In this document: positions 2,276-4,125 of the stretch, piece by piece | How the letters are laid out: the number at the start of each line of letters is the position of its first letter | How positions within the stretch are numbered: the stretch's first letter is position 1 | The notes under the pieces: generated by a model | What the model was told of the DNA's origin: nothing | What the model saw: the letters and a program-made list of their open reading frames with translations, nothing else | Databases searched by the model: none | Origin: Armatimonadota bacterium | Lineage (GTDB): Bacteria; Armatimonadota; UBA10988 | Length of the DNA: 21,882 bases | Assembly (NCBI GenBank): GCA_016235455.1 | Contig: JACRKZ010000092.1 | Span: 1-21,882 of the forward strand | Reading direction: 5' to 3' | Translations under genes and position numbers: made by a program

Positions 2276-2399
2276 GGCGACCATAGCTCAGTGGGTAGAG
2301 CACGCAACAGCGGTCCGCTCCAACTTGCCCGCGAGGGCTGATTGCAGACTGTTCTCGATTACAACGACGGGGTCGTGGGTTCGAATCCCACTGGTCGCC
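2276..2399 (+). ncRNA. tRNA-mimic Y RNA (YrlA-like) in canonical tRNA connectivity
   Basis: Acceptor stem GGCGACCA (2276-2283)/TGGTCGCC (2392-2399); TA linker; D arm GCTC-AGTGGGTA-GAGC (2286-2301); variable loop GGGTC; T arm GTGGG-TTCGAAT-CCCAC (2375-2391). The anticodon arm is replaced by about 67 nt containing CAACTTGCCC-GCGA-GGGCTGATTG. No CCA is encoded. It lies about 110 nt upstream of a Ro60 gene. Confidence 0.8.
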
Positions 2400-2401
2400 C
2401 T

Positions 2402-2473
2402 GGTGAGGGCTGAAGGGCTTGGGTTATCGCATGAACCGATGAACCCCCAGGCCCGCGCACTTGCCCTCACCTT
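2402..2473 (+). ncRNA. Second candidate Y RNA (conventional stem-loop topology, YrlB/Yrn-like)
   Basis: Helices GGTGAGGGC (2402-2410)/GCCCTCACC (2463-2471), GGGCTTGGG (2415-2423)/CCCAGGCCC (2446-2454) and ATCG (2426-2429)/CGAT (2437-2440). The junction GGGC-T-GAAG...CA-CTT-GCCC resembles the metazoan Y RNA Ro site GGUC-C-GAAG...CACUU-GACU. Confidence 0.68.
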
Positions 2474-2511
2474 CACGCCAATGGACATGCCCCACGAAAG
2501 GAGGGGCCAAG

Positions 2512-4125
2512 ATGCGCTACACACAGCACTACAGCAAGCTGAAGACGTCCCAGGCCAAGCCGCTCGCCGGCCGGGCCATGGTGGCCAACGACGCCGGCGG
2601 TTATGTCTTCGCCGTCAGCGACTGGACGCGCCTGCGGCGCTTCCTGATCCTCGGCAGCGAGGGCGGCACCTACTACGCCGGCGAGCGCGTCGTCACCATC
2701 GACAACGCCAAGGCGGTCGAACGGTGCCTGGCCGCCGACGGCCCGCGTGTGGTCCGCGAGGTGCTCGCGGTCAGCGAGGGCGGATGCGCGCCGCGCAACG
2801 ATCCGGCGCTGTTCGTGCTGGCGCTCTGCACCACCGGCGACGAGGCCACGCGGCGCGAGGCGTTCGCCGTCCTGCCGCGGGTGGCGCGTACCGGCACGCA
2901 CCTGTTCACCTTCGTGACCTACATGAAGGACCTGCGTGGCTGGGGCAAGCTGGCGCACCGTGGCCTGGCCCGGTGGTATGTCGAGCGCGACCTGCACGAC
3001 CTGGAGCTGCAACTGGCCAAGTACCAGGGCCGCTCGCAGGCCGGTGAGCGCTGGACACACCGCGACGTGCTGCGTAAGGCCCGGCCGAAGGTCGAGGCCG
3101 GACCGCGCAACGCCGCGCTGGCCTGGGCCGTGGGCCATGAGGCCGACCTGGACGGTCTGCCGCTGCTGGCCGCCGTCGAGGCGGTGCGGCATGCCGAGCG
3201 CGTGGACGACGTGGTGCGGCTCATCGAGACCGCGCACCTGCCGCGCGAGTGCGTGCCGACGCAGTGGCTGACCGAGCCGGCGGTGTGGCTCGCCCTGCTG
3301 CCGCAGATGCCGCCCATGGCGCTGCTGCGCAACTTGGCCAAGCTGGCCGGGCTGGGCCTGCTGGCTGGCCGGTCCGAGGCCTGCGAATGGGTGGCGAAGC
3401 GGTTCGCGCGCGAGTCGCTGCTCCGCGCGCGGCTGCATCCGCTGGCCATCCTGCTGGGTCTGCGACAGTTCGCCCAGGGCCGGGGCGACAAGGGCCGCCT
3501 GACCTGGCCGGTGGCGCCGCAGGTGGTGGACGTGCTCGGGCAGGCTTTCCACGACGCCTTCGCCGTGGTTGAGCCGACCGGACGGCGACTGCTGCTGGCG
3601 GTCGACTGCTCGGGCTCGATGGACGGCACCTACATCGCGGGCACGTCGCTGTCGGCGCGTGAGGCGGCCGGCGCGCTGGCCATGGTCACGGCGGCTGTGG
3701 AGCCGTCGTGCCAGGTGGTCGGCTTCACCGCGGGGCCGCACCGTGACCGGTACGGGTTCGGCAGCGGCCTGACCGCGCTGGACATCTCGGCCCGGCGGCG
3801 GCTCGACGACGTGCTGCGCGTCATGCGTGGCGTGCCGTTCGGCGGCACCGACTGCGCGCTGCCGATGCTCTGGGCAACCGAGCAGCGGCTGGCGGTCGAT
3901 GCGTTCGTCGTCATCACGGACAACGAGACCTGGGCGGGCAGCATTCACCCGACTCAGGCGTTGGCCGAGTACCGCCAGAAGACGGGCCTGCCCGCCAAGC
4001 TGGCGGTGATGGCGCTGACGTCCACGGGCTACAGCATCGCCGACCCGGACGATGCGGGCCAGATGGACATGGTCGGCTTCGACACCGCCACGCCGACGGT
4101 GCTGGCCGACTTCCTGCGGGGGTGA
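2512..4125 (+). CDS. rsr: Ro60/Rsr ribonucleoprotein (TROVE domain + VWA domain)
   Basis: ATG at 2512 follows AAAGGAGG. TROVE motifs NDAGGYVF, RLRRFLILGSEGGTYY, RTGTHLFTF, KY...WTHRDVLR, MALLRNL and RLHPL. VWA MIDAS DCSGSM, plus GGTDCALPM, ITDNETW and IADPDD...GFD. Confidence 0.95.
   Translation: MRYTQHYSKLKTSQAKPLAGRAMVANDAGGYVFAVSDWTRLRRFLILGSEGGTYYAGERVVTIDNAKAVERCLAADGPRVVREVLAVSEGGCAPRNDPALFVLALCTTGDEATRREAFAVLPRVARTGTHLFTFVTYMKDLRGWGKLAHRGLARWYVERDLHDLELQLAKYQGRSQAGERWTHRDVLRKARPKVEAGPRNAALAWAVGHEADLDGLPLLAAVEAVRHAERVDDVVRLIETAHLPRECVPTQWLTEPAVWLALLPQMPPMALLRNLAKLAGLGLLAGRSEACEWVAKRFARESLLRARLHPLAILLGLRQFAQGRGDKGRLTWPVAPQVVDVLGQAFHDAFAVVEPTGRRLLLAVDCSGSMDGTYIAGTSLSAREAAGALAMVTAAVEPSCQVVGFTAGPHRDRYGFGSGLTALDISARRRLDDVLRVMRGVPFGGTDCALPMLWATEQRLAVDAFVVITDNETWAGSIHPTQALAEYRQKTGLPAKLAVMALTSTGYSIADPDDAGQMDMVGFDTATPTVLADFLRG

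Follow-up and report, generated by a model that had tools for sequence, protein, structure and literature searches.

Arginine in place of the Y RNA-binding histidine of a bacterial Ro60 is accompanied by a bulged uridine in both neighbouring Y RNAs

Reviews treat two features, a bulged C in the Y RNA and residue H187 of Ro60, as invariant hallmarks of Ro60–Y RNA recognition. Passages of one review (PMC4030889) describe H187 as essential for direct Y RNA contact and the bulged C as the primary Ro60 site, and a passage of a further source (PMC11277228) reports that mY3 binding is lost in the H187S mutant. Ro60 contacts mainly the 5′ strand, which bears the bulge, according to sections of PMC4201824 and of bioRxiv 10.1101/312249, and binding is abolished by removal of the bulge or by a changed conserved sequence (PMC4726728). 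For bacteria, the part of Chen et al. (2014) that defines the Y RNA motif gives GNCGAAN0-1G, in which the C is fixed. Here we analyse rsr, the gene of the bacterial Ro60 protein Rsr, together with two Y RNAs just upstream of it, in the window, a stretch of 21,882 nucleotides from an Armatimonadota bacterium (contig JACRKZ010000092.1 of assembly GCA_016235455.1). Apart from its recognition pair the locus is an ordinary Ro60/Y RNA module; that pair is changed, with Arg191 at the H187 column and a bulged U in both Y RNAs, and this pairing recurs across bacteria. We read it, with a probability of about 0.7, as a compensated switch in which Leu and His reading a bulged C were replaced by Val186 and Arg191 reading a bulged U. 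No description of co-variation between the 187 column and the bulge was found in the literature searched, where the supplements of Chen et al. (2014), whose YrlA candidates number more than 250, might list exceptions.

The rsr gene (2512–4125, forward strand) encodes a 537-residue Ro60 orthologue with a TROVE/HEAT ring and a vWA domain. Pfam TROVE (PF05731) matches at 100.7 bits (cut-off 23), followed by the Ro60-type vWA_Ro60 (PF25045) at 199.6 bits (cut-off 27.7), which is the domain order of the family. Comparison with PDB chains by phmmer gives E-values of 1.2e-104 for human RO60 (9nen_A), 2.8e-102 for Xenopus laevis Ro60 (1yvp_A) and 1.7e-100 for Deinococcus radiodurans Rsr (2nvo_A), with matches that span nearly the whole protein (residues 13–534 or 20–537). 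Rsr is thus roughly equidistant from the human and Xenopus proteins and from the Deinococcus protein (E 1e-100 to 1e-104). With the Xenopus protein of the Ro60–Y3 fragment structures (1YVP/1YVR) it shares a common fold family (E 2.8e-102) and the helix motif KY..R..W.H.D.LR; it differs in having Arg for H187, Val for the Leu five residues earlier and an insertion of four residues.

We compared the alignments around Arg191 (codon CGG, 3082–3084), which lies in the helix K170–K193 (KYQGRSQAGERWTHRDVLRKARPK, 3019–3090). Deinococcus Rsr, likewise a bacterial Ro60, aligns without a gap through this helix, LRKARPK of the window lying under LRKAHPK, so that Arg191 faces a His, residue 192 of the deposited 2nvo_A chain. 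In the alignment to Xenopus 1yvp_A, 'rkar' lies under 'rlsh' with K170 and R174 in register, and the His aligned to R191 is chain residue 187 by counting from the start of the printed row. The pairwise alignment to human 9nen_A, with a 2-residue gap at 'hl', is ambiguous here; in MAFFT alignments, whether with 120 or with 151 homologs, R191 falls in the His column. The sequence-only reading had put Arg at the conserved His by eye, with an insertion of about four residues just upstream, and both placements stand: the multiple alignments bring no other residue into the column, and phmmer and MAFFT agree on the insertion as SQAG (residues 175–178, 3034–3045), which the Xenopus, human and Deinococcus proteins and most homologs lack. 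The column itself is less uniform than the reviews suggest. Among the 120 best homologs it holds H in 115, R in 3 and K in 2, and when the query is set among 150 proteins that represent 50%-identity clusters, the counts are H 119, R 15, K 14, M 1, Q 1 and one gap, which leaves about one fifth of the Ro60 sequence clusters without His. Because the column varies within the family (R, K and Ser), the Arg of the window protein marks a subtype and does not exclude it from Ro60. Within the phylum, 86 of 401 sampled genomes carry rsr, and at the 80 loci fetched the other Rsr protein has His in every case (80/80). The closest relative of the window protein, P0002, is 75% identical and likewise has both Arg and the insertion.

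Both Y RNAs lie on the rsr strand just 5′ of the rsr start at 2512. RNA 1 (2277–2399) has the topology of a natural transfer RNA (tRNA): its 5′ and 3′ ends pair into a 7-bp acceptor stem, and a D arm, a T arm and tRNA-like conserved nucleotides are present. In place of the anticodon arm stands a long arm that carries the Ro-binding helix at its tip. The Rfam tRNA model matches it at 47.3 bits (gathering score 29) over model positions 1–71 with a 65-nucleotide insert at the anticodon arm, and ARAGORN does not call RNA 1 as a tRNA. Its Ro-binding helix (2324–2341) is closed by a tetraloop and runs CUU (2324–2326), GCCC (2327–2330), GCGA loop (2331–2334), GGGC (2335–2338) and bulged U2339, after which G2340 pairs with U2326 (G·U) and A2341 with U2325. 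RNA 2 (2402–2471) is a short hairpin of the YrlB/stem-bulge RNA (sbRNA) type. Its 5′ strand GGUGAGGGC (2402–2410) is followed by bulged U2411 and GAAGG, and its 3′ strand consists of CUU (2460–2462) and GCCCUCACC (2463–2471), the latter pairing with GGUGAGGGC. In this arrangement GGUGAGGGC-U-GAAGG faces GCACUUGCCCUCACC with U2411 bulged, and the upper stem carries the GGGUUAUC motif; RNA 2 is a stable hairpin by computed folding (-40.8 kcal/mol, z -6.26). Both RNAs have one 5′-strand bulge, a neighbouring G·U pair and a CUUG 3′ strand, and in both the bulged nucleotide is U instead of C.

The bulge assignment was examined with two covariance models, R1 for short Y RNAs (28 seeds) and R2 for tRNA-like Y RNAs with a capped Ro helix (30 seeds), both built from His-type, C-bulge relatives only and with the window RNAs left out of the seeds. 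The structure of R1 has 13 pairs with compensatory double changes, and none of 500 shuffles was as good; among the 30 relatives of R2, compensatory changes occur in the acceptor, basal-arm and T stems. RNA 1 matches R2 at 89.2 bits, and RNA 2 is the top match of R1 (53.3 bits) though it stands outside the seed. The alignments place U2339 and U2411 in the bulge column, where the sequence-only reading had also seen U. In the 6.5 Mb genome to which the window belongs, R1 and R2 find only these two Y RNAs, both with U, and rsr is present in a single copy.

Next to described Y RNAs, the window RNAs are similar in layout and distinct at one position. Vertebrate Y RNAs have the same lower stem, that is, a helix, one bulged pyrimidine, a G·U pair, a further pair (A–U or G·U) and, in the 3′ strand, CUUG; the window RNAs differ from them by a bulged U for C9, by being encoded beside the protein gene and by the tRNA-like form of one of the two. 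GAAGG and GCACUUG of RNA 2 resemble what we take to be the corresponding strands of human Y1. For Deinococcus Yrn1, the relevant part of Chen et al. (2014) describes both strands of the Ro helix as recognizable, as they are in the window RNAs; the tRNA-like features are arranged otherwise, since the own ends of Yrn1 form the Ro-binding stem. YrlA and YrlB of Salmonella and Mycobacterium smegmatis (RF02553) also lie beside rsr, one with D and T arms and one short, and their 5′ motif GNCGAAN0-1G corresponds to G-G-C-[U]-G-A-A-G in the window. The nucleotide between the conserved C and GAA is U in the window and C in the relatives. RNA 1 reads in the order acceptor, D arm, Ro arm, T arm, acceptor, with a loop-capped Ro helix, whereas the order of YrlA is permuted. 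Lastly, the short Y RNAs of His-type relatives match the nematode stem-bulge RNAs (RF01656) at 32–39 bits (gathering score 38), because the bulged lower stem is shared; compared with the nematode RNAs, those of the window are bacterial and beside rsr, and RNA 2 has no match to RF01656 at E up to 10. None of the Rfam Y RNA families RF00019, RF02553 and RF01656 reaches its gathering score on the window, where only tRNA passes; YrlA (RF02553) gives 15.7 bits, its gathering score being 69. The expectation that standard Y RNA models could miss such RNAs is thus borne out, but not on account of the U, as at these thresholds the Rfam families miss nearly all C-bulge relatives too.

To relate the residue to the bulged base across lineages, we merged the R1 and R2 matches by bulge coordinate and required a G after the bulge, which gave 539 distinct helices adjoining rsr. 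A loose regular-expression scan for bulged helices was far too noisy, and a stricter version served only for seed picking and a few extra calls. Non-His loci came from public collections by back-translated DNA patterns of the protein helix: the Arg pattern (CGN codon) gave 3 matches in genomes, 2 of them Rsr, and 48 in metagenome contigs, 44 of them Rsr, and the Lys pattern gave 31 matches in genomes. The same pattern with His served as a cross-phylum control in genomes, for which 80 loci were searched among the matches listed. His-type loci have C without exception. The phylum set contributes 281 C and no U helices (74 loci) and the control 131 C and no U helices in 60 of its 80 loci, at least 5 of which repeat phylum loci, a total of 412 C among 412 helices. 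In the phylum relatives the same two kinds of RNA lie upstream of rsr, often as arrays, and GGGC-C-G is read by eye at every bulge. Ser-type loci also have C throughout (14/14 helices, 11 loci). Arg-type loci have 38 U and 8 C helices, with 22 loci all-U and 5 all-C; after identical proteins are merged, 16 go with U and 3 with C, to which the locus L138 adds one more with C. Four Arg loci called by the regular expression only (L141, L160, L171 and L177) all have U. Lys-type loci are divided, with 53 C and 14 U helices in 16 all-C loci, 6 all-U loci and one mixed locus. Seeding R1 and R2 only from His-type C-bulge relatives biases the models against finding U, and the G+C contents overlap, C-bulge matches of His-type loci including helices at 0.44–0.50 and U-bulge matches ranging over 0.45–0.66, so the U bulge is not an effect of base composition.

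These counts bear on the sequence-only proposal of a Ro/Y subfamily defined by co-variation, which a split of the proteins by residue against the bulged base was to examine. Arg-type proteins are not equally associated with C bulges (38 U against 8 C helices, and 16 against 3 proteins plus L138), and the association recurs on the Rsr tree. A strict code of His with C and Arg with U does not hold, since Lys goes with either base, Ser with C, and four Arg lineages keep C. Short of a strict code, the proposed protein–RNA co-variation is largely supported.

The main rival to the compensated switch is that specificity was relaxed and not exchanged. In that case Arg or Lys would contact the backbone or a feature common to pyrimidines, the need for C would be lost, and U would accumulate by mutation pressure. 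Such relaxation fits the Lys-type loci, which have C (53 helices) as well as U (14), and the Arg-type loci that keep C (8 helices); it would also accommodate Ser, which occurs naturally in 15 loci, with C, though H187S abolishes binding in mouse Ro60 according to review. However, drift predicts mixtures, and the Arg loci are 22 all-U, 5 all-C and none mixed, with one mixed among 23 Lys loci. Nearly all genomes are uniform in the bulge, including those with several copies (5 U in L110, the Lys-type locus of the cultured Desulfonema magnum, and 3 U in L129), and A or G occurs in none of the 539 helices. Relaxed specificity therefore fits the divided Lys-type loci but neither the uniform genomes nor the lack of purines, and we regard it as unlikely.

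A further argument against relaxation comes from a second site. When all alignment columns are ranked by mutual information with bulge identity, residue 186 is third (0.537 bits) and residue 191 fourth (0.532 of a possible 0.672), so that 186 co-varies about as well as 191, an addition to the single-site view from which the work started. Position 186 is Leu in most C-type proteins and Val or Ile in most U-type proteins; in the window it is Val186 (codon GTG, 3067–3069). Taken together, the two sites strengthen the signal. Val or Ile186 with Arg191, the combination of the window, goes with U in 23 of 23 loci, and with Lys191 in 5 loci against 2 with C, so that the pooled combinations have U in 28 of 30. 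Leu or Ala186 with Lys191 is found with U in 1 locus and with C in 15, and Leu or Met186 with Arg191 with U in 3 and with C in 4; His and Ser at 191 are always with C. A change at 186 that accompanies U in this way suggests that the pocket was remodelled and not lost.

We propose that a bulged C would have been read ancestrally by a His in the H187 column and a Leu five residues earlier, and that the window lineage would have moved to Arg191 and Val186 reading a bulged U. The recognition pair, an outer-surface helix of the protein and the lower stem of the Y RNA, would then have switched in this lineage, and the C-to-U change in the RNA would be compensatory, keeping binding while altering the base preference. 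That both Y RNAs of the genome share the change points to binding kept with an altered base preference, and the uniform C-to-U change in all Y RNA copies of Arg-type genomes is best understood as compensatory, maintaining a base-specific contact. We infer that RNA 1 and RNA 2 bind the window Rsr, that residue 191 reads the bulged base directly and that affinity or specificity has really changed. A plausible chemistry would be that Arg, an obligate hydrogen-bond donor, favours U through its O4 carbonyl, whereas for C the N4 amino group can donate to His. A stronger form of the proposal, in which a two-residue, one-base lock has flipped repeatedly from Leu and His with C to Val (or Ile) and Arg with U, and in which the residue at the H187 column reads the pyrimidine directly, is tentative, and we put it slightly short of an even chance. 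If true, it would yield mutually insulated Ro–Y RNA pairs and a natural, portable specificity switch for a ribonucleoprotein whose recognition rule is thought invariant from bacteria to humans. The variant with Arg and U (and Val186) points to which amino acid reads which base and offers a rule for designing orthogonal Ro–Y tethers, and searches for bacterial Y RNAs should permit U at the bulge.

The U might instead have been selected for a reason on the RNA side that has nothing to do with residue 191, such as an alternative pairing of the lower stem or recognition by another factor, for example an enzyme that processes or modifies the RNA. In its minimum-energy fold, RNA 2 does pair U2411-G2412 with CA of the 3′ strand and bulges CUU instead. 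This CA is not conserved in other U-type RNAs, whose 3′ strands read AAACUUG, CACCUUG, UCACUUG and so on, and an RNA-side cause leaves the absence of U with His unexplained. We consider it the most improbable of the explanations weighed here.

The recurrence of the association was examined on a FastTree phylogeny of 239 Rsr proteins, a tree with long branches and unsupported deep nodes, on which 10 changes of the bulge and 19 of the residue are counted. There are about ten separate origins of U, each in an Arg or Lys background. Division of the tree so that each clade has a single residue and a single bulged base yields 46 clades (Arg/U 8, Arg/C 3, Lys/U 3, Lys/C 6, Ser/C 5 and His/C 21), and Fisher's test on these units, which are not fully independent, gives p = 8e-5 for Arg against the rest and p = 1e-5 for Arg and Lys against His and Ser. 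We also simulated the bulge evolving independently on the tree under three rate settings, with 2000 runs each and a similar number of U tips kept. Runs in which every U tip had an Arg or Lys background numbered 0, 1 and 0 of 2000, and Arg made up at least the observed 25/31 of the U tips in 8, 5 and 0 runs. The window itself is a lone Arg/U tip within a His/C phylum and is the clearest single case. In a stricter test, independent pairs on well-supported branches, there are 4 pairs only, of which 2 differ the same way, none the opposite way and 2 show no difference (p = 0.5); being underpowered, this result is neither for nor against the link.

These results also weigh on a coincidence of descent: Arg and U would have become fixed separately, each in a few large clades, and the association would stem from shared ancestry and sampling, with no functional link. 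One clade of about 15 related metagenome loci does supply most of the Arg/U rows, and the strict pairs test is not significant. The roughly ten separate placements of U, all on an Arg or Lys background, speak against coincidence, as do the simulations, matched in at most 1 of 2000 runs for background, and the isolated position of the window in a phylum otherwise His/C (80/80). We judge such a coincidence very improbable.

Besides the shape of the tree, the partial dependence of its clades and the outcome of the pairs test, several points weigh against the compensated switch. Arg occurs with C in L031 (2 RNAs), L138 (2), L147 (1 by the models, 2 by the regular expression) and L161/L165, and Lys goes with either base. 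A YrlA-like RNA with a U bulge stands beside C-type copies in the His-type locus L078, called by the regular expression and not by the models. The Arg loci were sampled from CGN-coded Arg in metagenome contigs, and 23 of 45 had no RNA call in the first pass, several of them lacking flanking DNA. The column ranked first by mutual information is 144, where one large clade has Arg for Trp; the window lacks this change, and the signal of the column therefore looks clade-specific. For the window organism the support is sequence comparison, which shows the residues and the RNAs, how these RNAs are structured and how residue and base are associated across lineages. The reviews say no more than that H187 is needed for contact with Y RNA; its contact with the bulged base itself is putative. 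A comparison of paralogues within a genome found none to compare, as each of 5 genomes with U-type or exceptional loci has one rsr, and a search from the single protein P0001 found no relative in genome contigs.

The sole mixed locus, L118 (C, C, U, C), is on a Lys-type Verrucomicrobiota contig that adjoins the large Arg/U clade on the tree, and it may represent a transitional state. Ser at the H187 column was found by the DNA-pattern scan in L019–L030 and L032–L034, mostly Mycolicibacterium/Mycobacterium with two Gammaproteobacteria and one Saccharibacteria metagenome-assembled genome (MAG); the Y RNAs called there have C, whereas H187S is the standard loss-of-binding mutant of mouse Ro60. 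On contigs labelled as archaeal MAGs (binning as labelled), rsr occurs in L107 (Thermoplasmatota), which is Lys-type with a U-bulge RNA, and in L231 (Nitrososphaerales), which is His-type.

The four-residue insertion is unrelated to the switch. SQAG-like insertions also occur in the His-type proteins P0113, P0121 and P0135, so the insertion is not tied to Arg, and a DNA pattern for a helix with both Arg and the insertion had no match in metagenome contigs. Insertions of 4–13 residues at the same spot, after KYxxR, are present in P0113, P0121, P0135, P0149, P0156, P0171, P0198, P0202, P0254 and P0255, proteins that are otherwise unrelated and mostly His-type.

Tandem arrays of Y RNAs upstream of rsr (L049, L053, L057, L116, L125 and others) mix short, permuted-YrlA and natural-topology forms, with up to 8 distinct helix calls in L116 and 7 in L125. 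Natural-topology tRNA-like Y RNAs are found, besides 2277–2399 of the window, in L002, L009, L016, L035–L067, L110, L122, L127, L188, L222, L226, L245, L253, L260 and others, and R2 matches of 80–119 bits lie beside rsr in Armatimonadota, Chloroflexota, Gemmatimonadota, Myxococcota, Desulfonema and Thiotrichaceae, by record names. tRNA-shaped Y RNAs with the Ro helix as a capped hairpin in the place of the anticodon arm look like a widespread class, of which no description was found in the literature searched. A GGUUAUC motif, placed right behind the Ro-binding region, hardly varies between phyla in either RNA class (alignments A1 and A6); the window copies are GGGUUAUC at 2422–2428 in RNA 2 and a diverged UGUUCUC at 2350–2357 in RNA 1. 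In many tRNA-like Y RNAs it is followed by a small hairpin with a 7-nucleotide CUnnnAA loop (A6 columns 101–118; for example L035, L042 and L043), a sequence that looks like an anticodon loop.

Both Y RNAs are probably made from the same transcript as rsr. A scan of 2050–2560 found no promoter-like or terminator-like site between the Y RNAs and rsr. Contigs of a relative about 92% identical cover 2371–3150 in one DNA library and three RNA libraries, with no difference at 2411 among the differences listed; contigs from RNA libraries do not in themselves prove transcription. Contigs of RNA libraries from two studies begin exactly at 2400, one base past the 3′ end of RNA 1, while the DNA contig runs across 2400. 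These starts are a weak hint, consistent with a tRNA-type 3′ cleavage that would separate the two Y RNAs.

As to the remaining features of the locus, GGAGG at 2500–2504 (forward strand), read by eye 7 nucleotides 5′ of the ATG, is the likely ribosome-binding site of rsr. The genes that flank the RNA/rsr unit, for a PRC-barrel protein and a glyoxalase-family protein, are on the opposite strand and look unrelated to rsr. In the vWA domain, DCSGS (residues 365–369, 3604–3618) is what we take to be a MIDAS-like motif (metal-ion-dependent adhesion site) of the form DxSxS. This name for DxSxS is used in PMC12135203, and the motif of the window protein aligns to DVSAS of the human and Xenopus chains.

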